Shown here: in pieces, positions 2,152-64,000 of the stretch
How positions within the stretch are numbered: position 1 is the stretch's first letter
Layout: every line of letters begins with the position of its first letter
Sequence record: NC_103192.1
Direction: 5' to 3' (one strand)
DNA: 64,000 nucleotides
Origin: a phage
Program-made: the position numbers and the translations under genes
The notes under the pieces: model-generated
Database searches by the model: none
What the model was told of the DNA's origin: nothing
What the model saw: the letters and a program-made list of their open reading frames with translations, nothing else

Positions 2152-2454
2152 TACTTGAAAATTCCTGGCATATCAAGTATAAGGGGGATTTCTAAAATGG
2201 ATTTCCTCCTTTTGATATTTCACCAGGCTGGATATTTTAAAATCCTTAGAAAATCAGAAAATGGATCGAAAACTAAAATGGATTTTTTCAAGACAGGCAC
2301 GATAAGCTGCGCTGCTCATTCTATCATTCGCACCGTACTTCAAATCACAGTTCCAGATTTTCCACACACACTCTCGCCCATCTAACAGGACTTTCCCAAC
2401 TTACCTTCGACCTTTTATGACAATAAGTTAATTATTATCAGTAAGTTTTGATAC

Positions 2455-2650
2455 ATCTCTCTCAGTACTCGATCTGTTTTTCATTTCAAAGATTGGATTT
2501 TCTGAAAATTTTTCTCGATAAATTTCTCAGTACTCGATCTGTTTTTCGTTTTCTGAATTGGATTTTCTGGAAATCGTTCCAGCTCTCGACCTGAAATTTT
2601 TGGGGACGAAATCGATTTTTCGTTTTCAGAAATGGATTTTTAAAATTTCT
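2455..2650. repeat. Tandem direct repeats, about 65-bp unit (ctcagtactcgatctgtttttc...ttggattttctg), 2 good copies plus 1 degenerate
   Basis: Near-identical copies readable at about 2462-2520 and 2527-2585; non-coding. Confidence 0.7.
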
Positions 2651-2789
2651 ATATGGGAATATTTTAGTGGATACTATTTTATAGGAAATTGTTACGGAGG
2701 GTAATTAGCATGCTAACTAAATTTATTAAATGCGAAAAGTTCTCATTTAGAATTTTGAATGATAATCATTCTCGTTTGCAGAATAACGG

Positions 2790-3260
2790 GCACCCCCGGT
2801 GATTGTCTCCCGGCCCCTGTTGCCCCGGCTTGTTATTATAGTATCACACAGGACAAAGAAAGCAAAGACTTTTTGCATAAATTTTTAAATGATAATGATA
2901 ACCGTTCTCATTTTATGCAGCGCCCATCCCCGGTGGTTGTCTCCCCCGTCACCGGTGCCTGCCGTCCTTTCGATAGGTATATTGTGCCACCTGGCGGGGC
3001 CGCTGTCAACACTTTTCAAAAAAAAAAAATTCTAACCTGATGCGCTAACCGTTGCAACCTGGCGGGGCCAGCCTGGCAGGTCCGCGCTATAAAGTAAGCA
3101 GCTACAGAAGAGGTACAAAAATGAAAAGTAATATAATCCCCTGGAAAATGTAGCGATCAATGCCGCTGAAGTTATCGCCCTGGTTGAAAAGGCTATGGCG
3201 GGAGCGTTGGAACATAAAGAAGAGTACGAAAAAATGGTGGTTAACCTGGCGGGGGGCGGC
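2790..3260. repeat. GC-rich repeated motifs (CCGGTGRTTGTCTCCC x2; ACCTGGCGGGG x3) in a non-coding tract
   Basis: Motif copies at about 2796, 2929, 2988, 3055, 3243; GC content far above flanking sequence. Confidence 0.6.
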
Positions 3261-3297
3261 AGGTGGATTCTATCATAAAAATAATTTAAAATAGTCG

Positions 3298-3327
3298 TTG
3301 ACAACAAGGTTAATCATGGTATTATTA
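3298..3327 (+). promoter_or_regulatory. Sigma70-like promoter
   Basis: TTGACA, 17-nt spacer, TATTAT-like -10, about 50 nt upstream of the 3377 gene. Confidence 0.5.
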
Positions 3328-3376
3328 CCCTACAAGGTGAACAACACCACACTAATTAACAGAGAGGATAAAAATC

Positions 3377-3574
3377 ATGAACGCCTACGGAATTAAAGTA
3401 CGTCGCAACACTCGCCAGGTGGTCACCGATCAAATGGTTTGCCGGGTGGATGTAACCATCAACAACGGGCAAGGCCTTTATAAATTCTGTCGCGGTCAGA
3501 GCTATACCCTGCAACAGCTTAATCGTTGCGCCCTGACAAAAGGTCAGATCAACCACTGGTTTAATAAAAAATAA
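3377..3574 (+). CDS. Hypothetical early protein
   Basis: SD agagaggat upstream of ATG; own promoter. Confidence 0.5.
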   Translation: MNAYGIKVRRNTRQVVTDQMVCRVDVTINNGQGLYKFCRGQSYTLQQLNRCALTKGQINHWFNKK

Positions 3575-4125: not shown

Positions 4126-4521
4126 ATGAATAAGAACGTACGCCGCATCATGAACGAACTGGCAAACGATGAAAAAATTATTGACATGCATTTAGTCAAC
4201 ATTTGCCGCCGTTGTGTAACATATAACAACCGCGCCGCAAAAGCGCGTGAGATGAACGCAAAAGGCACCTTAAAGCCCTTTCAGGTGGTTGTAAAATCTA
4301 TAACTAATGCAGCAGGCCAGGCGCATGACCACAACAACGAGAGCGCTAATATTGATCCGTCTTACGTAATGAAACGGATCCGGACTTGCAAGAATAAAGA
4401 GCAGGTGTATAACGTCATAGATTGGCTGGACTCCCTGGGCGATGTGGTTTACAATAGGTTTTCTGCAGCTATCGAGATCCAGCTTGACAGATTGGACGGG
4501 AAAGTACTAAAAACTTATTGA
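4126..4521 (+). CDS. Hypothetical early protein
   Basis: Start moved to the ATG after SD aaggaaaaag; leader has GC hairpin ggcgggaatgtttcccgcc. Confidence 0.5.
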   Translation: MNKNVRRIMNELANDEKIIDMHLVNICRRCVTYNNRAAKAREMNAKGTLKPFQVVVKSITNAAGQAHDHNNESANIDPSYVMKRIRTCKNKEQVYNVIDWLDSLGDVVYNRFSAAIEIQLDRLDGKVLKTY

Positions 4522-4568
4522 GTTTATTTTTAGATGGCCTTGACACCAGGGCCATCAATAAAGTAAAC
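4521..4568 (+). promoter_or_regulatory. Repeated promoter element with -35 TTGACA in the loop of a GATGGCC/GGCCATC hairpin (copy 1)
   Basis: 48-nt element aatttatttttagatggccttgacaccagggccatcaataaagtaaac; near-identical copies at 5151 and 8887. Confidence 0.55.
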
Positions 4569-4600
4569 TAATCTCAGTTAGGCTAAAAGGAGGCTTGAAG

Positions 4601-4800: not shown

Positions 4801-5151
4801 ATGAATACTTCCATCACTATGACCGCCGAAGAAAAAGCCCTGCAGATCGCCGCTCTGAAAAAACAGATTGCAGAACTTGAAGACAAGATCGACAATTTTG
4901 AAATCGACGAAGACAAACACGACGATAAATATGATGAATGGTTAGACGAGATCTACGGCGAAATCATGATCGGAAACATTTCTTTTCTTCCGTCGCGTAT
5001 CCTCAAGGAGCTAGATCCTATCGCTTACCGCTGCGGATTTAGCGACTACATCGACAGCCTAGATATTGAGGACGATGAAGAATACCAGGAATTGCAGACA
5101 GAGCTCGAAGAAGTGAAAGAGGAGCTTTCAGAGCTGGAAGAAAACGAGTAA
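4801..5151 (+). CDS. Hypothetical acidic protein
   Basis: SD aaaaggagaaaac; leader hairpin; very acidic, heptad-like C-terminal half. Confidence 0.5.
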   Translation: MNTSITMTAEEKALQIAALKKQIAELEDKIDNFEIDEDKHDDKYDEWLDEIYGEIMIGNISFLPSRILKELDPIAYRCGFSDYIDSLDIEDDEEYQELQTELEEVKEELSELEENE

Positions 5152-5198
5152 ATTTATTTTTAGATGGCCTTGACACCAGGGCCATCAATAAAGTAAAC
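5151..5198 (+). promoter_or_regulatory. Repeated hairpin-promoter element (copy 2)
   Basis: Same 48-nt element as at 4521. Confidence 0.55.
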
Positions 5199-5240
5199 TT
5201 TATACTGTTAACACTTAACCAATACAGAGGAGTTAAAACC

Positions 5241-5486
5241 ATGGCCGCACTAATTACCAAATATTATGCCCCTACCAACACCAAAAGCGCCCGTATCATG
5301 GTAAAAGGCTTCGGACGTAAAAAGGTGTACACCTGGGATTATTCCCTAGACATGGAAGACAACTACACCAACGCGATGACAGATTTTATTAATGAGCTGA
5401 ACACGCGGATCTTGACAAATTATAAAATTACCGATATTGCCTATGTAGGGGAAGGCGGGATCTGTTTTGTCGGTATCGTCAAATAA
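5241..5486 (+). CDS. Hypothetical early protein
   Basis: SD agaggag upstream of ATG. Confidence 0.5.
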   Translation: MAALITKYYAPTNTKSARIMVKGFGRKKVYTWDYSLDMEDNYTNAMTDFINELNTRILTNYKITDIAYVGEGGICFVGIVK

Positions 5487-5562
5487 ACTGTTTTTTCGGT
5501 GGTCCTGGTAGCAGGGCCATCTATAAAGATAGTTTATCAACACAATGAAAGGAGAAAGTAAC

Positions 5563-5910
5563 ATGATCAGCGGGGCAAGTTTTATTATTGGCGCTATTGC
5601 TACGGCTTTAATTGTAAACAAGATCCAGGATAAAAAGGAAAGTACCGCCCTTGCAGAATATCCATTTTGGACATTCAACGATAATGAAGATTATATTGTA
5701 AAGTATAAAAATAAAGAAGGTGACCAAGTAACACCGCGACCGATCCCGGCTTACAAAATGCAGGAAACACTGTACCGCCTGGAAGCGGGGGGCGCAAAAA
5801 TTGTAGACTTTTGGGGATACGATCACACAGATCAGGAAGTTATAAAGCGCCGTATCCGGGCTATTCAGGCCAATATCGAAGTTAGTAAGGGGGGAATATA
5901 TGAAGATTAA
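5563..5910 (+). CDS. Hypothetical membrane protein
   Basis: Start moved to the ATG after SD aaaggagaaag; N-terminal TM segment ISGASFIIGAIATALIV. Confidence 0.45.
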   Translation: MISGASFIIGAIATALIVNKIQDKKESTALAEYPFWTFNDNEDYIVKYKNKEGDQVTPRPIPAYKMQETLYRLEAGGAKIVDFWGYDHTDQEVIKRRIRAIQANIEVSKGGIYED

Positions 5911-6097
5911 TTTTGAAAAGATTGTAAAGCGATCTCATGATTCCGAAGAGCTGCCGGAACGCCGCCAGCGTAACAATAAACTGAATAAGCCAAAAAGATT
6001 TGGGAAGATCTGGCGGAATCATTATGATCGCAAATTACCGGGCCTGCTTTTGGAACGTGAACGACAGGCGGAACGATACCGCCACAAAGGCAAATAA
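5900..6097 (+). CDS. Hypothetical basic protein
   Basis: Overlaps upstream gene; Arg/Lys-rich. Confidence 0.4.
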   Translation: MKINFEKIVKRSHDSEELPERRQRNNKLNKPKRFGKIWRNHYDRKLPGLLLERERQAERYRHKGK

Positions 6098-6105
6098 CAA
6101 CCAAC

Positions 6106-6133
6106 GCCCCGCCATTGTGCGGGGCTTTTTATT
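6106..6133 (+). terminator. Rho-independent terminator
   Basis: gccccgccattgtgcggggc hairpin followed by a T-run. Confidence 0.6.
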
Positions 6134-6278
6134 TCTATCCTACGAATAGCGCCCCTGGTTGGCCCCACAAACGCCACAAAAGCCCCTACCTATGCAATCC
6201 CCTTTCTTAATCTGAAAACATCACCCAGGGCCGTTTTATGGCGTTAAAAATATTATTGACAGTTATTTTATTTAAAGC

Positions 6279-6307
6279 TTGACACCTTGGAATAGTCCGG
6301 ATATACT
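6279..6307 (+). promoter_or_regulatory. Sigma70-like promoter
   Basis: TTGACA, 17 nt, TATACT. Confidence 0.5.
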
Positions 6308-6342
6308 AGCCACATCAAAGCAAGAAGGAAGGAGTAAACGCC

Positions 6343-6603
6343 ATGCGTAAATTGAAAAATTTTGATAAGGTCGATGCAGTACTAAATAATTTTTACTACT
6401 GCAATAATAAAGCCGTTTGGTGGCGTGATAGTTCCACCGATAAAGTTAAAGCGCGCTTTCTCCAGGGGCACTGGCAAGGCCGCCCAGTGATTAAAATCTT
6501 GGGGCAATTGGTAGCGTTTAAAAATTGCCGCCGTGTTGATGACGTTGAAGAGATTTTAAACATTTTGCGCCACAATAATTTAAAAAATAGTGTTGACAAG
6601 TAA
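6343..6603 (+). CDS. Hypothetical early protein
   Basis: SD aaggaaggag. Confidence 0.5.
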   Translation: MRKLKNFDKVDAVLNNFYYCNNKAVWWRDSSTDKVKARFLQGHWQGRPVIKILGQLVAFKNCRRVDDVEEILNILRHNNLKNSVDK

Positions 6604-6675
6604 GTATCAATAAGTATACTTAAACACAGGCGGGAAAACTTCCCGCCACTAACAAAGAAAATAGGAGAAAATATC

Positions 6676-7299
6676 ATGACCACCGTTAACATTACCACAG
6701 GTTACAATTTAGCTTTCGACGTGCTGACCGACGAACAAAAAGAAAAAGCCGTTGAAATGGTCCGAGAAAGAGAAGAACACAGCGGGGATAACTTTTTTGC
6801 AGAAAGTGTAATTGAAGACTATAAAGAATATGTCTTTCCAGAGTATGGCCTTGAAGATACCAAGGTACATTGGTCCGGCTTTTGGTGTCAGGGTGACGGC
6901 GCGTCAATCAGTGCGGAAAACGTGGATTTAGAAAAATTCTTGCGTAAAGTCAAGTCTCTGACTAAATTTCGCTCAATTCGTCACTTGTTCGGCACAATGC
7001 ACGATGGCGAACTATCCGCAAGTGTTGAGCGTGATCCATATAGCCGCTATAGCCACGAAAACACTGTAAACGGGTACATCGATACTACATGGCTAGACCT
7101 GACCGCCAAACAAGAAGATAAAGTGGAAGATTTGGAAGAACTGATCACCGAGACGGTACGGGAGCTATCCCGCAAGGTTTACGTAGACTTGGAAGCGGCC
7201 TATTTGGAGCAATTCACATCTGAAAACCTGATCAACCTTATTAAGGACAATGATTGGCGGTTTGATGTAGATGAACATGGCGAGATGACTTTTTCATAA
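6676..7299 (+). CDS. Hypothetical early protein (207 aa)
   Basis: SD aataggag; leader GC hairpin ggcgggaaaacttcccgcc. Confidence 0.5.
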   Translation: MTTVNITTGYNLAFDVLTDEQKEKAVEMVREREEHSGDNFFAESVIEDYKEYVFPEYGLEDTKVHWSGFWCQGDGASISAENVDLEKFLRKVKSLTKFRSIRHLFGTMHDGELSASVERDPYSRYSHENTVNGYIDTTWLDLTAKQEDKVEDLEELITETVRELSRKVYVDLEAAYLEQFTSENLINLIKDNDWRFDVDEHGEMTFS

Positions 7300-7388
7300 A
7301 TAAAGTGTTGCAATAACCTAAAAACCTGCTATATTAAAACTCAAGGGGGCAAGACGTTTGCCCCACACAAAACAAAGAGGAAAACATT

Positions 7389-7769
7389 ATGAAAAACACT
7401 ACTAAAGCTATTGACACCGTTATGTTTAACCTGGTTACCTTTCGCGAGGATATGAAAGATCTTCCACGTGAAACAGTGTGCGATCACATTGAAAACTATC
7501 GCAAACTAATCAAAGAGTTGCCTTTAAAACGTGACCAGTATGCGGCTAACGCTATGCTCAACGCCATGATCAAAAAGATGATTCAGTGTGATTTAACCCT
7601 GGCCTATGATTATGCAGGTGGTCGTTTTGCAGTATATAATCAGCCCGTGCCTGGTATGGGCACCACCGAAGAATTGCACGCGCTCAATCTAAAACAAGAC
7701 GTGTGGGATAGTATGCCTCGCGTGGTGGTGTGGGCAGAAAGCGGAAAGATTTACGGCGATAATTTTTAA
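7389..7769 (+). CDS. Hypothetical early protein
   Basis: SD aaagagg; leader hairpin gggggcaagacgtttgcccc. Confidence 0.5.
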   Translation: MKNTTKAIDTVMFNLVTFREDMKDLPRETVCDHIENYRKLIKELPLKRDQYAANAMLNAMIKKMIQCDLTLAYDYAGGRFAVYNQPVPGMGTTEELHALNLKQDVWDSMPRVVVWAESGKIYGDNF

Positions 7770-7780
7770 TCAAGAACAGA

Positions 7781-7806
7781 CGGCGGCATATTTGCCGCCT
7801 TATTGT
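7781..7806 (+). terminator. Rho-independent terminator
   Basis: cggcggcatatttgccgcc hairpin followed by ttatt. Confidence 0.55.
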
Positions 7807-7835
7807 TAAACAGAACTGCAAAAGAGGTACATAGA

Positions 7836-8207
7836 ATGGAATTTATTATTTTGGCTGTATTAGTTGCCTTGTTTAACGCCTGGATCGCTGGCAAGATGGG
7901 TAGATCCGCCTTTTTATGGTTTATTATATCTATTTTCCTGGGGGTGGTTGCAACTATTGTATTAGTTATCCTTGCAATTGTTGACAAGGGCGATAATAGA
8001 AAGGGTAAAGTATTTTCAGACCTGTACGACGCTCAAACGTTTGTCAACGCATATTATAGTGATCTTCCAGTCTCCCTACGCTGCAGCCTGGCACAACAAG
8101 TTTTCGATGAGGCTAAAACCAGAGATCAAGCCCATGAGATATGTTTAACTGAGGCGGATCGCCTATTTGAGAGGAATAGAAAATATGTGGGCCAACCGTT
8201 TAAATAA
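7836..8207 (+). CDS. Hypothetical membrane protein
   Basis: Two predicted TM segments (IILAVLVALFNAWIA; FLWFIISIFLGVVATIVLVILAIV). Confidence 0.45.
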   Translation: MEFIILAVLVALFNAWIAGKMGRSAFLWFIISIFLGVVATIVLVILAIVDKGDNRKGKVFSDLYDAQTFVNAYYSDLPVSLRCSLAQQVFDEAKTRDQAHEICLTEADRLFERNRKYVGQPFK

Positions 8208-8430
8208 TGCCACGTTAATTAATCCCTTTAGTGAAGATTTGAAGCCAGCCGCCTGGCGTGATGGATTCAATACCGAACGCTTTATTTTCAGGCCTGATCT
8301 TGAGGAATTTTATAACAATGGATCGAACAACGACAGAGATAATTTTTCTTGTGATGTGCGTAGTGATGGTACTCCTGGGGGCCATTGTAAACCACGTCAC
8401 TACTACCAGGAGGAAAGGGGGAGACGATGA
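8185..8430 (+). CDS. Hypothetical early protein
   Basis: ORF overlapping upstream gene; start is a guess. Confidence 0.35.
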   Translation: MWANRLNNATLINPFSEDLKPAAWRDGFNTERFIFRPDLEEFYNNGSNNDRDNFSCDVRSDGTPGGHCKPRHYYQEERGRR

Positions 8431-8546
8431 CACCCAAGGATAAGCCACGCACCGATAAGGCGCGCCGTGTTATGGTGTGGCTGGAGATCATCGCCCTTGA
8501 AATATTGTTAGGCGTAGGGATGTACTTTATCGCTATAAGTAACTAA
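8427..8546 (+). CDS. Small membrane peptide (39 aa)
   Basis: ATGA overlap with upstream gene; SD ggaggaaaggggg; C-terminal TM; terminator directly downstream. Confidence 0.4.
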   Translation: MTPKDKPRTDKARRVMVWLEIIALEILLGVGMYFIAISN

Positions 8547-8547
8547 G

Positions 8548-8580
8548 AACGGCCCCCGATCATGGGGCTTATCTTTTTAA
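8548..8580 (+). terminator. Rho-independent terminator
   Basis: ggcccccgatcatggggc hairpin followed by a T-run. Confidence 0.55.
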
Positions 8581-8685
8581 AAAATTTTTCTTCTAGGGTG
8601 TTGCAATCCGGTCCGAGATGTGGATAATGACAATCAACGGGGAGCCAATCCCCACCAACACAAAAAACCAGAAAGGAGAAACAAA

Positions 8686-8886
8686 ATGAGCAACAATATC
8701 CGCGTTATTAACTTCAAAAAAGAAGAAAAAATTGCCGTGCTGATTGACGGTCAAGAAATCTTCAAGGGCGATTATGAAGATCATCAAACGGCGATTAGTA
8801 TCACTCGCGTGATCGGTTACCATAATTTCTACCCCCAAGGCGCTGAGGCAGCAGTTAAACGAATCAAAGAGATTGTAGGCCTGTAA
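8686..8886 (+). CDS. Hypothetical early protein
   Basis: SD aaaggag; leader hairpin ggggagccaatcccc plus CA-rich linker. Confidence 0.5.
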   Translation: MSNNIRVINFKKEEKIAVLIDGQEIFKGDYEDHQTAISITRVIGYHNFYPQGAEAAVKRIKEIVGL

Positions 8887-8935
8887 AATTTATTTTTAGA
8901 TGGCCTTGACATCAGGGCCATCAATAAAGTAAATT
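8887..8935 (+). promoter_or_regulatory. Repeated hairpin-promoter element (copy 3)
   Basis: Same 48-nt element as at 4521 and 5151, with one C-to-T change in the loop. Confidence 0.55.
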
Positions 8936-8977
8936 TAAACCCTGTTAAAATAATCAGTGCAAAAAGGAGTAATGATC

Positions 8978-9277
8978 ATGTTTATACCCGCCAATAATCT
9001 TTATTTCTTTGATGGTCAGATCGTAGACGGTGTGGAAGTCGAGATCACTGGATGTCAAGGCGGTCAGGCAATGATCTTTCGCAATAGTGCCTTTAACGAT
9101 CAATTCATTACAATGACCATGGAAGTTAAAAAGCTGGACGATAAGAAAACGCTCATTGACTATTCCGTGAAAGATCATCCAGACTACCACATGATCTATG
9201 GTGATTTGTGCATTGTTGACCGTGACAAGGTGGGCGGCATTGTGATCGCTATTGTGAACGATGTTTTCTCAAACTAA
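8978..9277 (+). CDS. Hypothetical early protein
   Basis: SD aaaaggag; start moved to the third in-frame ATG. Confidence 0.45.
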   Translation: MFIPANNLYFFDGQIVDGVEVEITGCQGGQAMIFRNSAFNDQFITMTMEVKKLDDKKTLIDYSVKDHPDYHMIYGDLCIVDRDKVGGIVIAIVNDVFSN

Positions 9278-9294
9278 TTTCAGCAGGTGATTTT

Positions 9295-9645
9295 ATGAAA
9301 GTAAAACTATATTACCTTAATGAGCTTAACCCCCTTGCCCAGGTCCGCGCCCTGGCTAATACCTTGATTTGTGAGAAATCTGCATATTGTGTTGAGCTTA
9401 ACGCCATGCGTGAACGTCTTAAAGGGGGTTACTTTGACATCCATGCTGCAATCAACGGCCTGAATATGGGATTTATACGCTTACGTAACAGCCGCCGGAA
9501 TCTGGCAAGAATGGAACAAGATCCGGCCCACCTTCGTAAGCTGGTTATTGAAAACCATCTGATGTTTAATGCCGAGGGTGATTATTACCATTTTCACCGC
9601 AAACGCTGGTACCGTGGCGGCAATACAGGCAAGAGTGCAAAATAA
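9295..9645 (+). CDS. Hypothetical early protein
   Basis: ORF followed by GC hairpins. Confidence 0.45.
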   Translation: MKVKLYYLNELNPLAQVRALANTLICEKSAYCVELNAMRERLKGGYFDIHAAINGLNMGFIRLRNSRRNLARMEQDPAHLRKLVIENHLMFNAEGDYYHFHRKRWYRGGNTGKSAK

Positions 9646-9846
9646 GGCCCCAGGCAGGGCCTGCAGCGATATAATCACATAAAGGCTATGCGGTTGCATG
9701 GCCTTTATTATTTTAGCGTTACAGCGGCCTCCAAGGCGCTTAAAAATTTTTAAAGAAGTACTTGCATCAAGCCCTACAATATGGATAATAGGACGTGTCA
9801 GGGGGGCGGCCCCCAATCATTAACCAGATAGATAGGAGTTAAAACC

Positions 9847-10131
9847 ATGGCTATTGTTACCGCTGGCGATGTAGTAGAAATGGAAGCAAAATACTTAAAA
9901 GCTGGTATGCATATCATCCGCAATGATCTTGATCTGGTCCTCACTATGGTTGATTATAACCCTGGTCAAGATTATCCAAGCGTTGACTACTTTTTCCAGT
10001 ATGTTGATGAAGAATTAAAAGAGGATGAGGCTTATCGGGGTGAATTTTGTAATTTCTTTTGCCCTGATGAGGTTGTAAAAGTTATTTATCAACCTGGCGT
10101 ACCTTTCCCGTTGCACGCTATCAATAAATAA
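9847..10131 (+). CDS. Hypothetical early protein
   Basis: SD gataggag; terminator hairpin gggccgataaggccc downstream. Confidence 0.5.
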   Translation: MAIVTAGDVVEMEAKYLKAGMHIIRNDLDLVLTMVDYNPGQDYPSVDYFFQYVDEELKEDEAYRGEFCNFFCPDEVVKVIYQPGVPFPLHAINK

Positions 10132-10197
10132 ACCTGGAGGGGCCGATAAGGCCCCCACCCAACCTGAGATTATGAAAATAAAGAGAGACAAATCATC

Positions 10198-10431
10198 ATG
10201 ATGGAACAAATTAAACGCGCTGAGGCTATTAATGGCAATGTGATCTATTTTGTCAGCAAAAACGAAAAAGGCGTACCATATGCGGCGGTAATAGTACAGC
10301 CTGACGGCAATTATTGGTTTACTGTATACGGATCTTATTCTTTCGGGCGTCCGGTGCATGATAGAATTTTGAAAGTAGCGAACCCCACCGGGAAGAATAT
10401 CACGGCAGAAAAATTTTTTGAAAATAATTGA
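10198..10431 (+). CDS. Hypothetical early protein
   Basis: SD aagagaga. Confidence 0.45.
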   Translation: MMEQIKRAEAINGNVIYFVSKNEKGVPYAAVIVQPDGNYWFTVYGSYSFGRPVHDRILKVANPTGKNITAEKFFENN

Positions 10432-10509
10432 CAACGTTTTAAATTAGTTTAAGATGTATCACGTAGGGGCAAGCGCCCTATTAAACGCAACAAGAAGAGG
10501 ATAAACACC

Positions 10510-10749
10510 ATGAAAAGCAGTAAAGGTTATAACGGTTGGAAAAACTTTAATCAGTGGAACGTTGTTCTGTGGATCAATAATGACGAAAGTATGTACTTTT
10601 TCGCCCTGGGCCTGATTAATGAGTGTGGTAATAAAGGTGCGGCGGCTGATTTGATGTGCTACCGTTTGAAACAGGAAGGGATCACCCATACCCCTGACGG
10701 TGTGCCTTATACTAAAACCAATATCCGCGCCGCTATGGTTGGAATGTGA
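10510..10749 (+). CDS. Hypothetical early protein
   Basis: Promoter TTGACA at about 10426; conserved leader stem-loop; SD aagaggat. Confidence 0.5.
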   Translation: MKSSKGYNGWKNFNQWNVVLWINNDESMYFFALGLINECGNKGAAADLMCYRLKQEGITHTPDGVPYTKTNIRAAMVGM

Positions 10750-10838
10750 TAAAATAGCTTGACACTGTTTTTTATTCTGGTATAGTTTATCACATAGGGC
10801 GGCAATAGTGCCGCTCACAACTAAAAAGGGAAATCATC

Positions 10839-11033
10839 ATGGCGCTTAAAAAACTAACAAGCAATACTCGTTGGGATGAAATCGACGGGGAAGTTTACAT
10901 TTTTGCCCGTAAACCAGGGGATCAAAAATGGTCAAAGGCTTTTACTTGCCACCCTGCAACAATAGATCTAATAAAAAGTAAAGGTTTACGTGAAGCAGTA
11001 GCGAGAAGTTTACTGATCCCTTATAAAAAATAG
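10839..11033 (+). CDS. Hypothetical early protein
   Basis: Promoter TTGACA at about 10757; conserved leader stem-loop gcggcaatagtgccgc. Confidence 0.5.
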   Translation: MALKKLTSNTRWDEIDGEVYIFARKPGDQKWSKAFTCHPATIDLIKSKGLREAVARSLLIPYKK

Positions 11034-11093
11034 TTTGACAATATCGCACTAACCTTTAAAATGTTCTCTGTTACGTATCTTTAAAGGTGTAAC

Positions 11094-11273
11094 ATGTTCC
11101 AATCAATCATTGATGTTCTATCAGTCGCTAACAACGTGATGAACGTCATTACAATGATTAAACTTGTTGCGTGGTTTGTTTCTGGGGATTATCGCTATAC
11201 TAAGTGGCGCAAGCCAACCATAAAAGACGTAGCAAAGATCTTGTTTGAAGCAATGACAGAATATTATCTATAA
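11094..11273 (+). CDS. Hypothetical small protein (59 aa)
   Basis: Promoter TTGACA at about 11033; SD aaaggtg; below ORF-track cutoff. Confidence 0.35.
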   Translation: MFQSIIDVLSVANNVMNVITMIKLVAWFVSGDYRYTKWRKPTIKDVAKILFEAMTEYYL

Positions 11274-11369
11274 CGATTATTTTTTGTTGACATCTTGGGA
11301 TTGCTCTTTTACTATTAACGTGACTCGAAGGCCGTAACTGGTACGGCCTGATTCGAAAGGTGAATTAAT

Positions 11370-11570
11370 ATGAAACGTTTTACTTATGGCGTTGTTGGTG
11401 GGTATGTATCTAACCGTTTTTACAATACCGAGCGTGGTGCTAAAAATGCCGCTACCCGTGAACATGGCAATAGTGTGAATTTACAAATTGGTTATATTAG
11501 CAACATTAGTGGTATGTTTATTCCGGTTGCTCAACGCGGCATGTATTGCATAAACTGGATGCCAATGTAA
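11370..11570 (+). CDS. Hypothetical early protein
   Basis: Promoter TTGACA at about 11286; SD gaaaggtg. Confidence 0.45.
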   Translation: MKRFTYGVVGGYVSNRFYNTERGAKNAATREHGNSVNLQIGYISNISGMFIPVAQRGMYCINWMPM

Positions 11571-11585
11571 AAAGGAGTAATAAAA

Positions 11586-11777
11586 ATGAATGCCGAACAA
11601 GTTAGAAAGGTATTGGCGGTACTGCGTTATCATAATCATAGAAAGGTCATAGACGATCCTGATTATGTTGATTCAAGCCTGGAAGAAGGCACATTGCAAG
11701 CTATAAGCCATATGCAAGAATTGCTTAAGCGTATGACAGAGAAAAACAGATCTGATTATATAGGTGACGAGATCTAA
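11586..11777 (+). CDS. Hypothetical early protein
   Basis: SD aaaaggag. Confidence 0.45.
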   Translation: MNAEQVRKVLAVLRYHNHRKVIDDPDYVDSSLEEGTLQAISHMQELLKRMTEKNRSDYIGDEI

Positions 11778-11861
11778 AATAGCTTGCACAATGTATCTGA
11801 TAGTGTAAGATGTATCACGTAGGGCGGCAATGGTGCCGCTCACAACTGGAAGGAAAACACC

Positions 11862-12065
11862 ATGACTACAGCTAACCGCCTGATCGCCGTCCTGAACAAA
11901 GCAAAGGCTAACCGCCTGGATGTTCAAATCAAAGATCAAGCAAATGGCGAGATCCTTGCTACGGTGTCCGATGGCGGTTATGTATCGGAATCATTTTTAT
12001 CAGGGAGCTTAGATCATCTTGTTTGGAAATTAGAAATTATCGTGGAGGATATGCAGATCATCTAA
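11862..12065 (+). CDS. Hypothetical early protein
   Basis: Conserved leader stem-loop gcggcaatggtgccgc; SD ggaaggaaa. Confidence 0.5.
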   Translation: MTTANRLIAVLNKAKANRLDVQIKDQANGEILATVSDGGYVSESFLSGSLDHLVWKLEIIVEDMQII

Positions 12066-12117
12066 TCTTTACAAAACAGGGCTTGCAATGGTCCTGTTTT
12101 TTGTTATACTTATTCTA

Positions 12118-12165
12118 CGGCAGGCACCTGGCGACGGGGGGAGACAATCACCGGGCCTGCCTGTC
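12118..12165. repeat. GC-rich element, inverted copy of the motifs at about 2926-2970
   Basis: cggcaggcacctggcgacggggggagacaatcaccgggcctgcc matches the reverse complement of the 2.9-kb element at roughly 85 percent; self-complementary ends. Confidence 0.5.
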
Positions 12166-12269
12166 ATATAAGAACTATAAAAACCGTTGACATCTGCCAT
12201 GGGGTGGGGTAACATTTATCTTGAAGGGGCAAAAGTGCCCACACAACAACCAGGAGAGAGGAAAACATT

Positions 12270-13475: not shown

Positions 13476-14079
13476 CTGCTCTTCTCCTACCATAAACGGC
13501 CCCACCCGGCAAGTGGAATAATTGACTAGCCAGCAATTGCCTGCACTGTACAAACATACAGGTAAAATAGTTATTGCATAACCTTTCATTGTGTGGTAGC
13601 AGTGCCATTTTTACACGTTTTTCCTTCCAAAATTGCACGTAATGCCGCTATTGCATAAATTTTAACCTGATGCATATCTTCAATATCTTGTCAACAACTA
13701 AAAATCTTTATAAGTCATACACTTACACCACCACAAAAGCGTGTTCTACGTGAAAAATCGGGTGTAACTATAGCCGCCAGATCTCAGAATTTACGTACGC
13801 TCACCAGTCTATAGCCTGCTAAGTATTTATTCCAACCATAGAATAACGGAATAGTCAATACCTGCATAAAATAATTATTCGTGTAAACTGCATAACATAA
13901 ATCAGCCAGGGTGTCAACATTTTTCGTAAACATCTCGAAATTATCACGATGAGTTATCATAAACAGAGAAATCTTTAGTCGTCTAATGTTTACTGTACAT
14001 TACTATACTGGCTGGAATCATTAGATGACTAAGAGAAAGATAAGAAATAGTTAACAATGTAATTGTTTTACCTGTAACA

Positions 14080-14310
14080 ATAAGGCAACTATGCAAACGA
14101 ATGGCATGGCGCGACGGAGTCGCGACATAATATAAAAGCAGTAACCATCACCCCCGTGATAGTTTGTCTGCAAACTATTAATCAGATCATAGTTGCCTTG
14201 TAGTTAGTTAATCATGACACAATAAGCAAGGCAACTATAGATCTGCTAATAGTTGCCCTGCTTTTATATTATGTCATAGAAACACCCGAAGGGGTGACCG
14301 AAGGTCACCT
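14080..14310. repeat. Nested inverted repeats (18-bp gacataatataaaagcag / ctgcttttatattatgtc; four copies of CAAGGCAACT in alternating orientation)
   Basis: Read directly: 14124-14141 versus 14258-14275; motif copies at about 14082, 14189, 14229, 14249. Confidence 0.7.
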
Positions 14311-14329
14311 GGCCTAGCCAGTGAAAGAT

Positions 14330-14530
14330 TATTAACTTGTTAATTGTTAACTTGCTAATTGTTTTCATGCAAACGAATGTCATGGCTTATCATATCTGCG
14401 TGAACAGTGAAACATGGAAATGATAAATATGTGAACAGTTATCCATGTAAACTATTAGACATGCAAACAATCAGGTGTGCAAAAGTGACATAGTATGTCA
14501 CCAGTATGTCATAGTATGTCAGACAAGTTT
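14330..14530. repeat. Direct repeats and overlapping palindromes (ATGCAAACRAAT x3, GTGAACAG x3, TGACATAGTATGTCA array)
   Basis: Read directly in a non-coding tract. Confidence 0.65.
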
Positions 14531-16006
14531 TTCTCCTCTTTGTCAAGTGCTGCATGGAAAATTTACAAACTGGTATGGTAGCATTTTTGCGGCCCTGTTT
14601 ACATTCAGGAGTGTATGTATAATCCTTGTTGTGTGGGCGTTTAGACGTCTGGACGGTCAGAAGTCCGCAGGTTAATATCTAATCTATTGGTTGCTAACTA
14701 TATCCCACACAAATAGTAAGAAATATAATTGTTATATGCGTAAACAGTAACTCATGTTATCAATCCATGTATGGATCGCCAGTGGTGCGCATAATGGGTA
14801 TTATGTTAAATTGCCCGTAATGATAACCATTCCCACAATGATAGGTATTCTCATTCACCCCCACAAGATAGGTTGCAAATGTTGTGCCACTGTGTGAACG
14901 GCCTCACCTATTAATTTGCCCCACTGCCTCGATATTTGAGAATTGTTATAAGAATGAGAAGTATTCCCATTCCGTCCGCCTGGCAGCACTCCAGTCGCTA
15001 ACGCTCTCGGGCTGAGAGCTATGCTCGATGCTACCGGCTCCTGACAGGGAGGCACTCCTGTAGGACAGGTCAAAATCGGGGCATAACTGGACCCCCCTTC
15101 AGATATTTCTGGCTGACTCTTCAGGTCTGTGTGGGAAAAGCCAACCTCTCCGGCAGAGGGGAGGGGGTCAATTAAAAAATTTACGTGGTGTATGAAGCGC
15201 TCTTCAGGCAAGGTGTGTATTATGGGAGGAATCACTCTTCAGGTGATGATATTTGTGGGTGTGATATTTGCTGGAAAGCCAGATATGACGGGACTCCCGG
15301 CGGGGCAGGGGTAGTACAGACAGGGAAAATGTGGAGAATGTGGTGGGTAAATTGATCAGGCAGGTAGAGTATGAAATATGTTACAGGTATGTTAAATATG
15401 GAGGGTGAATATCTGTAAGATTTGTGTGTAAAATCAAAGACTTAAGTGGTGTTGTGGTATTTTCTATAAATAATTCAAGTTTAATAGGTAATATTTGTCT
15501 CTATCCACTTTGTGTGGTAACCAGATTCAGATGAAATTGGTTTACAAGTGTATACATAATATACAAATTAAAGATACAAGAAACCCCCCTCCCCCTTCGG
15601 CTACCATTCACCTTTTCCTCTGACTGGTACTTAAACACTTATTCAGACTCTTCAGGTTATCACCCATATATCATATGGCAGTGACTGGTGTCCTCCGGCC
15701 CCTCTTTCGTCACCCGTCCGCTTCGCCATGCTAATGCCATAGCCAAAGGTTCGGTTGTTCACCCTGTTCACTCAGGTGTATCTCCATACCCCTTCAAACC
15801 GAAGAGAACAGAAAACCCGAATTACTCGGTAAAAGAAAAGAGAAGAACTTAATTTTATCAGGATAGGCAAGAATGTCAAGGCATGACTGCTCACTAAACA
15901 AGCAAACAGTCATGTGTGGGAGGTAAGTGATTGTGGTGGTAGGAAATTTAGTTGAAAGATGTGTTATAGGTGCTTCCAGCACTTTAGCCGGGCAGCTAAT
16001 TGTGTG

Positions 16007-16222
16007 TCAGTCCAGCGGTTCATCTACTACTTCACTGAAATCAATGTTCAGAGTCTCTTCCCAACCATCGATCTCAGCACAAGAGTGGAGTTCTTTAGGG
16101 TTTACTCCCAAAGCCTCAGCAACAGAGTCTATATTTAACACCTCTGGCAGGTATGATTCATCGAATTCAAGGTAAATCAGGCCACGAGTGTTGTCAGCTC
16201 CACCAAATATTTCTATCTTCAT
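16007..16222 (-). CDS. Hypothetical acidic protein
   Basis: ORF at the distal end of the minus-strand gene array. Confidence 0.4.
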   Translation of the reverse strand: MKIEIFGGADNTRGLIYLEFDESYLPEVLNIDSVAEALGVNPKELHSCAEIDGWEETLNIDFSEVVDEPLD

Positions 16223-16342
16223 AAAATCTCCTCTGGAAATGAGAGTGTGAACAGGGTTATACGTTCCAATGCACTGGAATTTATATACGTTTGCCTCTTC
16301 AGGCCATGCTTTAGCATGATAAACTTGTGTGGGCTCGGTACT

Positions 16343-26413: not shown

Positions 26414-26643
26414 TCCTCCACAACTTCAAGGCCTTTACCGCCTCGCTCTGGCAGATTACTTAAAGATAGGTAATACATATAATCAGGAGAGATCCTGCCA
26501 GACTCTGCACCTGCAGCTAGTAAATCCTTCCCTTTAACCAGGACAACATTCTCGTTTGCAGATAGCCGTTTTGCTTCCACAATTTTACCAACACAGTCAA
26601 CCAAGGAAGGGTACCCTAAATCTGTAAGAAATTTAACTTTCAT
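26410..26643 (-). CDS. Small acidic protein, family A
   Basis: MKVKFLTDLGYPSLVDCVGKIV...KGKDLLAAGA. Confidence 0.55.
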   Translation of the reverse strand: MKVKFLTDLGYPSLVDCVGKIVEAKRLSANENVVLVKGKDLLAAGAESGRISPDYMYYLSLSNLPERGGKGLEVVEE

Positions 26644-60600: not shown

Positions 60601-60675
60601 GCCACCCAGTGCCCTGTTAGCTTAGTGGATAAAGCAGCGGCCTTCTAAGCCGTTGACACTGGTTCGAGTCCAGTA
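60601..60675 (+). tRNA. tRNA-Arg (anticodon TCT)
   Basis: Hand-folded cloverleaf: acceptor GCCCTGT/ACGGGGT, anticodon loop CTTCTAA, T-loop TTCGAGT, CCA encoded. Confidence 0.7.
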
Positions 60676-60815
60676 CGGGGTGCCAAGTTCTTTTTAATGT
60701 AGCTTACTTTAGCAGAGTAAATCTTCGGCAAGTGGCGGTAACCACTTTACCGATACCTCATAGTTAGTGGTGAGAACACTAGCTATTTTAAAAAGAATTT
60801 AAATATTAGTATTTA

Positions 60816-60903
60816 GGTGAGTTAATTCCGTAGGGGTAGCGGGGCAGACTGTAAATCTGTTATCATTGCGATTCGGGTGGTTCGACTCCATCACTCACCA
60901 CCA
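60816..60903 (+). tRNA. tRNA-Tyr (anticodon GTA), long variable arm
   Basis: Acceptor GGTGAGT/ACTCACC, anticodon arm CAGACTGTAAATCTG as in E. coli tRNA-Tyr, T-loop TTCGACT, CCA. Confidence 0.7.
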
Positions 60904-61017
60904 AATTTATATTTTTAAATGCATAAATCATACAGATAATGGCATTGATATTTATCGTCGTTTATACTAGTCACTAACTGCTCGAAAATCAGTGTCATTA
61001 TCAGTATTGTTTATAAA

Positions 61018-61108
61018 AGAGGGTAGGGAGCAATGGTGCTCAAGCGGTCTTGAAAACCGTCCCGTTGAGGATGACTCGATGATGGTTCGATTCCATTATC
61101 CTCTGCCA
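61018..61108 (+). tRNA. tRNA-Ser (anticodon TGA), long variable arm
   Basis: Acceptor AGAGGGT/ATCCTCT, anticodon arm CGGTCTTGAAAACCG, T-loop TTCGATT, CCA. Confidence 0.7.
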
Positions 61109-61206
61109 TATTGTTGACTATGTAATTAAGCGAAAGCCGGAAGCAGAACCGGATTATCAAATGTTACAGTCGTCATCGCCGACTAGCAACATGGTCAACA
61201 TACTGA

Positions 61207-61305
61207 GCTAGGTAAGCCCTTTGGCAAGGGCGAGGATTTTTAATCCTGAAAATAGACGAGGTAGTCGTTGAATACATAGGTGGTTCGATTCCATCACCTA
61301 GCACC
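61207..61305 (+). tRNA. Atypical tRNA-like element (type II shape, irregular anticodon arm)
   Basis: Acceptor GCTAGGT/ACCTAGC, D-arm GCCC/GGGC, T-loop TTCGATT, long variable arm; anticodon region is either a 5-nt loop or a 4-bp stem with TTTTTAA loop; no CCA. Confidence 0.35.
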
Positions 61306-61310
61306 TTTTT

Positions 61311-61386
61311 GCTGATGTAGCACAATTGGTAGTGCAATTGATTTGTAATCAATAGGTTGCAGGTTCAAGTCCTGCCATCAGCACCA
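61311..61386 (+). tRNA. tRNA-Thr (anticodon TGT)
   Basis: Acceptor GCTGATG/CATCAGC, anticodon loop TTTGTAA, T-loop TTCAAGT, CCA. Confidence 0.75.
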
Positions 61387-61387
61387 T

Positions 61388-61462
61388 GGCCCTGTAGCTG
61401 GAAGGTTCAAGCAAGCGACTCATAATCGCCAGACGGTGGTTCAATTCCACCCAGGGCCACCA
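61388..61462 (+). tRNA. tRNA-Met or Ile2 (anticodon CAT)
   Basis: Acceptor GGCCCTG/CAGGGCC, anticodon loop CTCATAA, T-loop TTCAATT, CCA. Confidence 0.75.
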
Positions 61463-61473
61463 AATAATAAATA

Positions 61474-61550
61474 CTCCGCGTAGCTCAGCTTGGTAGAGTG
61501 CCTGATTTGGGATCAGGAGGTCGAGTGTTCGAATCACTCCGTGGAGACCA
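61474..61550 (+). tRNA. tRNA-Pro (anticodon TGG)
   Basis: Acceptor CTCCGCG/CGTGGAG, anticodon loop TTTGGGA, T-loop TTCGAAT, CCA. Confidence 0.75.
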
Positions 61551-62654: not shown

Positions 62655-63079
62655 TGTCTAAGATTTACGGACCGTGTTCTGAAAAGCAGAAGATGATCCT
62701 CGAAAACGATGCAGATATTTTGGTAATCGGCGGTGCCGCAGGGTCTGGCAAGTCGTTCCTCTTGCAGTTGATGCCACTTAAAATTATTGATGACCCCCAC
62801 AGCTCTGTGGTTATGTTCCGAAGAACAACCCCACAGTTGGAAGGTGAGGGTGGGCTATGGCCTAAAGCAGTAGCTATTTATAGCGATCTGCCTGAAAACA
62901 TTAAGCCAAAGTTCAGAGAGAAGGATCATAAGTTCATTTTCCCACGGTTTGATCCGGGCACTGGCAAGTGGGATAGAAGCAAAAAGGGAGCTGTTGTAAA
63001 ATACTGCCACATGGAGTATGTACAAGATAAGCTTAACCATCAAGGGCTTGAGTACACCATGGTTTGCTTTGATGAGGGT
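62654..63079 (+). CDS. terL: Terminase large subunit, exon 1 (ATPase N-terminal part)
   Basis: Walker A GGAAGSGKS, Walker B MVCFDEG; reading frame then hits a stop where the intron begins. Confidence 0.7.
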
Positions 63080-63398
63080 TAATTTGTAGCTCTCGTAAAA
63101 CCTCCCTAATTGCGGGGAAATCTTTATTATTGACACCACCAACCTGTCATGGTAACATGACAGAGGCTTCGAAGAGAGATCGAAGGTATGGTAACAGTGT
63201 GTTAATTTAGATAATCCGCAGCGAAGCATCCGAAAGGATGAACGTTCAACGACTAGTCGAAAGACGTAGAATCAAGCGATTCGAAACGGGAGGATAAGCG
63301 GTTGTTGTCGCTTATAAGATATAGTCTGGTCTGCATGGAGACATGCAGCTGCCTGAAAATGGCGGGGCAAGACTAGCGACCTTGCCCGAACATAAACG
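63080..63398 (+). mobile_element. Group I intron (ORF-less) in terminase large subunit gene
   Basis: GTTCAACGACTAGTC and AAGATATAGTC core elements (P7-like), P9-like hairpin; exon 1 ends on U of ggt; frame resumes TQFEWEQIDYLMSRL. Confidence 0.6.
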
Positions 63399-63716
63399 AC
63401 GCAATTCGAATGGGAGCAGATAGACTACCTAATGTCTCGTCTGCGATCTCAGTCAAAGTATCCATCAAGAATGGTTATCAGCTGTAACCCCGACTCAGAA
63501 CACATGCTTGCCAAACTGATTAGGTGGTGGTTGGACGATGAAGGGTATCCAGATCCGGAGAAATGTGGTAAGAAAAGATATTTTATCCGACGCGACGGTG
63601 AATTTATCTGGGGAGACTCTAAGGAAGAGTTAATAGAGAAATACACCACGGTTAACGGACTAGGTGTGGAGATCAAGCCAAGACCGTTGTCATTCTCGTT
63701 CATAGGCGCAACCATT
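63399..63716 (+). CDS. terL: Terminase large subunit, exon 2
   Basis: Continues the ATPase domain (RMVISCNPD region) in frame after the intron; ends at a stop followed by a second intron. Confidence 0.6.
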
Positions 63717-64000
63717 AAATGATAGTGGCTTCGTGCAGAAATGCACGTCGAATAACTTCGTTAATTGCTGGAAAATCCTTTATGAAAGGACAATCAGCAG
63801 CCAAGCCTGAATATTCAGGAAGGTTCAACGACTATCCTGAGAGGGAGTAGGGCGCAAGCTTATGGCGCTCGAAAAGCGAAGCACCCTGAGATGGGTGGTG
63901 ATATAGTCTACTCTGCATGGTAACATGCAGCGGCACGTAATGGTGCGGAGGGTGGTGTTGCGACCACCCTTGAATATAAGGATTCGATAATCCTGTCTGC
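63717..64000 (+). mobile_element. Second group I intron in terminase gene (3' end beyond window)
   Basis: GTTCAACGACTA and GATATAGTC elements and a P9 hairpin closely resembling intron 1 and the nrdD intron. Confidence 0.55.

Follow-up and report, generated by a model that had tools for sequence, protein, structure and literature searches.

In phage HK022, the putL and putR elements face outward from both sides of the early region. Fur boxes carried in multicopy de-repress the Fur regulon, an effect that the Fur titration assay exploits. Fur itself polymerizes along DNA, and its boxes act away from the –35 and –10 elements, including in an anti-H-NS role at ftnA (PMC3788343). The Fur-box consensus of Xanthomonas campestris is 84% identical to the consensuses of Shewanella and Bacillus (PMC1790865). 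The rV5-like and phAPEC8-like phages are among the gut coliphages with the broadest host range (PMC6969025). The rV5 genome encodes a PolA-type polymerase and a gp4-like primase-helicase; the paper describing this genome gave no function to the region analyzed here, and the replication origin could not be defined (PMC3606486). We surveyed the literature on the motifs, on Vequintavirinae transcriptomes and on phage Fur boxes, and found no account of this region.

Here, we analyzed a window of 64,000 nucleotides of phage DNA, which belongs to a Vequintavirus (rV5/FV3-like) by sequence match to its relatives. We judge it about an even call that the tandem repeats and GC-rich motifs near its left end are the left half of a conserved, mirror-arranged, Fur-gated cis-regulatory architecture that bounds a block of small early genes.

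A conserved non-coding region with repeats and GC-rich boxes

Over positions 2200–3400, the window is 88–92% identical to the genomes of about 120 rV5/FV3-like myoviruses of E. coli. The ~0.9 kb at 2200–3100 is without a convincing ORF; its reading frames are short, and their annotation varies between relatives. Since the flanking genes are all on the + strand in the annotation of the relatives, we regard this stretch as a gap in a rightward array of small early genes. A 93-aa ORF (2759–3040) that is annotated in some relatives and spans boxes A and B was taken as non-coding because of its implausible, low-complexity translation. The non-coding control region is more strongly conserved than the neighboring genes: in eight genomes, the within-genus identity per 25-nt bin is 0.89–1.00 (mostly at least 0.93) over 2475–3075, compared with 0.69–0.81 over 2300–2450 and 0.76–0.86 over 3075–3200. 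The small gene to the right (Table 1) has a second frameshift near a G-run at ~3250, and its start is deleted in phage phiWec189. We considered genome termini or a pac site in the region and rejected them, as the two record boundaries that fall here (phiWec189 and EC152) are about what chance gives for ~270 records. The phiWec189 record has an ~148-nt end overlap, which is typical of a circular assembly.

Table 1. Features of the left-hand region and of its right-hand counterpart, in window coordinates.
Feature	Position	Strand	Description
Three iteron-like direct repeats	2455–2501, 2520–2566, 2594–2640		Spacing 65 and 74 bp, identity 77–84%
Weak Fur-box-like palindrome	2729–2747		AATGCGAAAAGTTCTCATT; 3 mismatches; 29 bp from next box
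Fur box (predicted)	2758–2776		AATGATAATCATTCTCGTT; 2 mismatches to AATGATAATNATTATCATT; best box of the window
GC-rich leader box A	2781–2811	–	Transcript sense GGGAGACAATCACCGGGGGTGCCCGTTATTC; contains the 16-mer at 2796–2811
Predicted promoter P_A	2865–2838	–	TTGCTT-16-TGaTACTAT, extended –10; read from the sequence; points into box A
Two overlapping Fur-box matches	2888–2912 (starts 2888/2894)		AATGATAATGATAACCGTT and AATGATAACCGTTCTCATT; 3 mismatches to strict consensus
GC-rich leader box B	2925–2965	–	Transcript sense ACGGCAGGCACCGGTGACGGGGGAGACAACCACCGGGG
Predicted promoter P_B	3009–2981	–	TTGACA-17-CACAAT with TG, 10/12; spacer holds the ACCTGGCGGGG copy at 2989–2999
Third predicted promoter	3057–3029 (feature 3029–3067)	–	TTGCAA-17-TAGAAT, 9/12; ACCTGGCGGGG at 3057–3067 abuts the –35
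Small gene, homologue of Gotham F10B_0201 (57 aa)	3121–3278	+	Frameshifted at C-run 3138–3141
Predicted promoter P_C	12073–12110	+	TTGCAA-16-TATACT; –35 inside the loop of a terminator hairpin
GC-rich leader box C	12118–12165	+	ACGGCAGGCACCTGGCGACGGGGGGAGACAATCACCGGGCCTGCCTGT; inverted copy of boxes A and B
Second predicted promoter	12187–12215	+	TTGACA-17-TAACAT; downstream of box C
Further Fur-box-like sites	14837–14855, 14953–14971		In the second large non-coding region, right of C

The preliminary description had two to three 65-bp tandem repeats at the left of the region, and we found three copies, unevenly spaced, with the cores GTACTCGATC..TTTTC and TGGATTTT. Tandem Repeats Finder (minimum score 30) did not report the three repeats at 2455–2640, probably because the copies are diverged and their spacing uneven. 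Three repeats laid out in this way, with a CTCGATC core, are also present in Seunavirus, Mydovirus, Certrevirus, Hena1, TH18 and Aeromonas phage 2L372X. At a GC fraction of 0.297, against 0.424 overall, positions 2476–2775 are the minimum among all 300-nt windows. Between the repeats and the Fur boxes lies a palindrome, AATTAGCATGCTAA (2703–2716), which is a perfect 16-nt palindrome in one related locus (L065); it appears to be specific to Vequintavirus and may be another operator. We also noted that Seunavirus GAP31 (L124, 135–959) and Mydovirus BIS47 (L125, 132–947) encode a conserved 271–274-aa protein (phrog_12959) upstream of the repeats, at a distance of no more than ~0.5 kb; Certrevirus and TH18 have proteins of similar size in this position. 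A homologue was looked for in the window and is absent from it; in the genera that carry it, this protein is a candidate repeat-binding protein.

The GC-rich part of the region repeats two short motifs. The 16-mer CCGGTGRTTGTCTCCC matches exactly at 2796 (+), 2930 (+) and 12139 (–), where 0.32 matches are expected with up to three mismatches, and ACCTGGCGGGG matches exactly at 2989, 3057 and 3244, all on the + strand, where 0.31 are expected with up to one mismatch. The repeated motifs that had been reported are therefore far above chance, with three exact matches each. The first two copies of ACCTGGCGGGG lie in or beside a promoter spacer or –35, in an orientation that varies relative to the promoter, and the third (3244–3254) is coding, being placed inside the F10B_0201 homologue, where it encodes ..VNLAGGG... 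Box C was already described as an inverted copy, and its arms agree with this: 2783–2811 and 12139–12167 (29 nt) are 86% complementary, and 2929–2947 and 12137–12155 (19 nt) are 95% complementary. By eye, box B and the reverse complement of box C agree over ~40 nt, CCCGGTGRTTGTCTCCCCC(C)GTCRCCRGGTGCCTGCCGT; a three-way MAFFT alignment of A, B and C puts the right-hand part of this match wrongly. Chance resemblance, the objection that the preliminary description had itself raised, is not the explanation because the elements on both sides are also conserved in other phage genera.

Across genera, the core of box A (GAATRRCRGGCA..GGTGWTTGTCTC) retains 80–94% identity. The adjoining Fur box together with TTTGCAGAATRRCRGGCA..CCGGTGWTTGTCTC (the first 59–74 nt) is likewise 80–94% identical in Seunavirus, Mydovirus, Certrevirus and Erwinia phage Hena1; it is less conserved, at about 70–74%, in the phAPEC8-like Stephanstirmvirinae, and Aeromonas phage 2L372X retains the Fur boxes and GGCAGG. 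A homologue of the conserved block was looked for in the E. coli chromosome and none was found, and the pattern of block and box had no exact match in 185,579 GTDB species genomes; we therefore reject a host origin of the element. A search of the whole window against Rfam at the gathering threshold gave nothing relevant to the element, and a search of 2200–3400 at E-values up to 10 gave only two chance snoRNA matches. Several other matches and readings were discarded. Copies of CATTCTCGTTTGCAGA at 26547 and 49824 are coincidental and lie inside coding sequence. Matches in IMG/VR to the 16-mer CCGGTGATTGTCTCCC (L003–L122) are mostly coincidental as well, falling in a coding stretch of more than 100 enterobacterial prophage contigs that looks like an HK97-type capsid gene (translation ..LPVIVSQYVGDQLVLVNAPD..). 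By eye, the spacing or the matches were wrong for a sigma-54 reading of GGCAC..TTGC and for a Tus/Ter reading of GTGATTGTCTC.

Fur-box-like palindromes and predicted promoters

A protein-binding array was among the roles first proposed for this region. The clearest sites that we found are predicted Fur boxes, which had been missed. These 19-bp palindromes (starting at 2729, 2758 and 2888/2894) lie just left of the GC-rich elements and have the form of the 19-bp inverted-repeat consensus AATGATAATnATTATCATT, or GATAATGATAATCATTATC in the E. coli register. With up to three mismatches, AATGATAATNATTATCATT has four matches in the window where 0.08 are expected, and a K/M variant, which allows G/T, has six (five distinct sites) as against 0.1 in shuffled sequences. 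All Fur-box matches of the window are confined to this region and to the non-coding region at 14.8–15.0 kb. The orthologous site of other genera, AATGAGAATCATTCTCATT, is perfectly palindromic and is letter for letter the Fur-box consensus of X. campestris (PMC1790865). Perfect matches to the K/M form occur in seven related loci, including those of PVP-SE1, Hena1, GAP31, BIS47, CB7 and TH18. The related loci have one to five boxes each, 28–29 bp apart from center to center in most arrays, and loci with boxes were found in phages of Escherichia, Salmonella, Klebsiella, Cronobacter, Pectobacterium, Erwinia, Citrobacter and Aeromonas. Collectively, the sequence, the statistics, the conservation and the published consensus point to Fur-box identity for these palindromes. 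A tblastn search of the window with an E. coli Fur query found no phage-encoded Fur, hence the simplest candidate ligand is host Fur; a phage protein with Fur-like specificity could be the ligand instead.

To the right of unit C, a second large region (13640–16300) is almost without ORFs and has Fur-box-like sites at 14819, 14837 and 14953. It also contains a perfect 18-nt inverted repeat (14124–14141 and 14258–14275) and repeats of ATGCAAACGAATGNCATGGC at 14091 and 14367, and its segment 13801–14100 ranks second in AT content among the 300-nt segments of the window. Elsewhere in the window, we noted two group I introns (63070–63348 and 63706–63930; Rfam, 84–93 bits) and a tRNA cluster (60611–61550) in which ARAGORN places a tRNA with a 4-nt anticodon at 61207–61305. 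Among distant sequences, three hot-spring metagenome contigs (L154, L168 and L173) have their first ~125 nt in common, with TATGAGAATCATTCTCATATCGAGAATTGCTGGCA ~95 nt from the ends, and then diverge; this common sequence looks like a mobile-element end bearing a Fur-box-like palindrome.

Relative to the predicted start sites upstream of them, the boxes lie at about +45 to +110, and the next –35 comes 20–50 bp after them. They do not overlap the –35 and –10 elements of the strongest predicted promoters, as boxes in classical repression do, which is a point against Fur gating. The sole overlapping candidate, a rightward promoter under the Fur box (TTGAAT-18-CAGAAT), was rejected as its –11 A is lost in several lineages; in unit C of phage CR3, the GAAT of this candidate sits 35 nt from the box. 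Likewise, a leftward candidate inside the box (GAGACA-18-TATTCT) was rejected as its –7 T is not conserved. In every genus examined, a leftward sigma-70-like promoter is predicted ~75–100 bp to the right of the Fur box, reading into the GC-rich box. At the position equivalent to P_A, the other genera have a stronger predicted promoter (9–10/12, with the –35 at about +99). Leftward promoters in these genera include TTGCAA-17-TATATT and TTGATC-16-TATTAT, and further ones are predicted ~160 bp to either side.

Each GC-rich box starts ~10–25 nt downstream of a predicted sigma-70 promoter and is oriented in the same way as that promoter. The predicted promoters of A and B are leftward, against the flow of the flanking genes and towards the Fur boxes and then the AT-rich repeats; that of C is rightward. 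The resulting unit has a fixed order and orientation: a predicted sigma-70 promoter, a G-rich box of ~35 nt (GGGAGACAAYCACCGG..GCCCGYUAUUC), Fur boxes 28–29 bp apart, and the next predicted promoter. Unit C, 9.3 kb from A and B, is of the same kind and rightward; in the window it has no good Fur box adjoining it, which is a further point against Fur gating. The cassette of P_C and box C is 79–87% identical in phAPEC8-like phages, Seunavirus and Certrevirus. In CR3, unit C runs from a predicted promoter through GGGGGAGACAAACACCGGACCTGCCCGCTATTC and a Fur box to the next promoter, and is thus an A module in reverse orientation; in Salmonella phage R7, the same promoter and box precede weaker box-like sites that miss the three-mismatch threshold. 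In CR3, anhysbys and Mt1B1_P17, unit C is ~10 kb from unit A. It had been proposed that the two GC-rich copies bracket about 9 kb of early genes in opposite orientation and could be boundary sites. Both proposals are supported: the outward-facing pair recurs ~10 kb apart in Certrevirus and in the phAPEC8-like Stephanstirmvirinae, Seunavirus has both modules, and the modules bound the early-gene block. In addition, we observed four 51-nt cassettes between the modules (4520–4570, 5150–5200, 5485–5535 and 8886–8936). In each, the loop of a hairpin contains TTGACA, and a –10-like hexamer comes after the hairpin; these cassettes are predicted to combine a terminator with a promoter, and P_C is built likewise. 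On a distant, phage-like metagenome contig of 410 kb (L153, 4260–4420), two units of GC-rich box plus Fur box face each other, with the two Fur boxes ~60 nt apart in the middle, as a compact version of the module.

Alternative roles for the region

Recombination or inversion sites, a role suggested when the region was first described, would flip or excise the 9-kb early segment. This is very improbable, although inverted repeats of 19–40 nt do flank the segment, one natural deletion ends within C, and phiWec189 has a 68-bp deletion between two copies of ACCTGGCGGGGCC. Of 243 related records, 74 match the 12.2-kb segment at one colinear, same-strand place (at least 80% covered), and none of the records listed has it inverted; no recombinase domain was found in the ten flanking ORFs searched. 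The only variant that touches the elements is that of rV5_ev146 (LR699804.1; L190), which is missing window positions 6047–12146, that is, 6.1 kb of early genes. Its junction is a 14-nt microhomology, AT(T/C)ACCGGGCCTGC, common to the ORF at 5900–6097 and to element C, so the deletion used a chance similarity with coding sequence and not A or B. The deletions of rV5_ev146 and phiWec189 are slippage or microhomology events, not the product of a site-specific system; as rV5_ev146 is a viable isolate, P_C and the 5' half of unit C are dispensable. A cis-acting leader RNA made at the outward promoters, whether a put-like antiterminator as in HK022 or a 5' stabilizer, is unlikely. Position agrees with the earlier antitermination proposal: the copies start ~10–25 nt downstream of predicted promoters, in matching orientation, and face outward as putL and putR do. 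Stems in individual lineages also vary in a seemingly compensatory way (CCGG/CCGG, TCG/CGA, GCGG/CCGC and AGGAT/ATCCT). RNA folding, which the preliminary description had recommended as a check, gave no conserved structure. Single-sequence folds were not above those of shuffled sequences (z of –0.6 to –1.95), RNAalifold gave –6.3 kcal/mol and no compensatory pairs for eight B/C leaders and no consensus structure for 17 A leaders, the hand-drawn stems are broken or shifted in register in many lineages, and Rfam has no match. An RNA role is unsupported. The box is conserved as primary sequence, and this sequence, not a folded RNA, seems to be what is recognized.

The remaining alternatives involve the Fur boxes or the AT-rich repeats. 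The arrays could be a decoy that titrates host Fur as phage DNA amplifies, freeing iron uptake and other Fur-repressed genes and so supplying phage iron enzymes, such as ribonucleotide reductases. The six box matches in 64 kb (five distinct sites), the up to five boxes per locus in relatives, the known de-repression of the Fur regulon by multicopy boxes and the NrdD/NrdG encoded by Certreviruses are all consistent with a decoy, yet the sites are few per genome, and their fixed position and orientation relative to the promoters and the leader box favor local cis-regulation; we consider a decoy improbable. A transcription-activated replication origin is a serious rival because the phage has a T7-like replisome. 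It is compatible with Fur-gated regulation, and we regard it as possible, though on balance doubtful. The G-rich transcripts of P_A and P_B would enter the AT-rich iterons and form an R-loop or open complex there, from which the T7-like replisome would be primed or loaded; the Fur boxes would modulate firing. Several features argue for an origin: three conserved tandem repeats with a GATC-containing core lie in the 300-nt tract of highest AT content in the window, two or three tandem predicted promoters aim into this tract, the non-coding conservation is very strong, and rV5 has T7-like replisome genes and an origin left undefined (PMC3606486). Against it, no initiator gene adjoins the repeats in the window, where the 274-aa protein of other genera has no homologue, and the ten flanking ORFs gave no Pfam domain at the gathering threshold when searched for a cognate initiator. 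Moreover, the skew changes of rV5 track the direction of transcription (PMC3606486), and unit C has a leader box but no neighboring iterons.

Proposed Fur-gated control and comparison with known systems

In the Fur-gated architecture that we favor, iron-loaded host Fur would occupy the box arrays and spread along them. The spread Fur would stop transcripts of the upstream promoter from reading through and would occlude the promoter that follows, 20–50 bp away, such that Fe-Fur on the arrays would gate transcription outward from the edges of the early block. Given this block and occlusion, we propose that outward transcription is released at low iron, or once Fur is titrated by the replicating phage genomes. 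The leftward transcription would run into the AT-rich iterons, possibly feeding a transcription-activated origin. Here, we infer promoter activity, Fur binding, the sign of the regulation and the role of the G-rich box from elements whose order, significance and conservation are direct observations. The control region nevertheless suggests that these lytic phages may read the iron status of their host. Only tentatively do we extend this to the view that a large group of virulent myoviruses has hard-wired host Fur into the edges of a block of takeover genes, with the arrays and the GC-rich leader box acting as a switch, dependent on iron or genome copy number, for antisense or outward transcription and perhaps for an iteron origin. 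Judged by its sequence elements, the putative Fur-wired group would include Vequintavirinae, Stephanstirmvirinae and an Aeromonas Plateaulakevirus.

If true, lytic phages would sense iron directly through a composite operator unseen in bacterial genomes, in which an ~35-nt phage-specific element is always coupled to Fur boxes, and the Fur reading would locate the control of replication or of early or antisense transcription. A conserved Fur-box array would tie host iron status to the lytic program in a testable way. The rV5-like and phAPEC8-like phages are common therapy candidates, and since iron is low in the gut and in infection but high in laboratory broth, a link to Fur could alter phage performance in vivo.

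The closest known counterparts are the boxes of the Fur regulon, 19-bp inverted repeats of the 9-1-9/7-1-7 form. The phage boxes match these in sequence and form tandem arrays, as at iucA and ftnA; unlike boxes of the regulon, they lie between tandem predicted promoters, instead of over a single –35/–10, in the non-coding hub of a virulent phage, and they always adjoin a conserved GC-rich box that is not known from host Fur sites. Similar to the upstream arrays with an activating or anti-silencing role at ftnA (E. coli), norB (Neisseria) and hilD (Salmonella), they are ~45–95 bp upstream of a predicted promoter and adjoin very AT-rich DNA, which could be a target of H-NS. HK022 putL and putR are likewise promoter-proximal, by promoter prediction here, and flank the early region in opposite orientation; by contrast, the boxes described here have a conserved primary sequence and no conserved two-stem-loop structure or covariation. 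As in the primary origin of T7, oriF and oriG of T4 and ColE1, tandem predicted promoters read into an AT-rich segment, in a phage with a T7-like replisome, and the predicted transcript is G-rich like RNA II of ColE1; unlike those origins, the phage region adds iterons, Fur boxes and a second leader copy that is without an AT-rich partner. Lastly, a resemblance to the face-to-face or tandem promoter switches of temperate phages (pR/pL of 186 and Pe/Pc of P2) is that the predicted leftward promoters sit among rightward genes, and convergent transcription and interference are hence possible; unlike in those switches, the phage is virulent, no repressor gene was identified, and the operators resemble host Fur sites.
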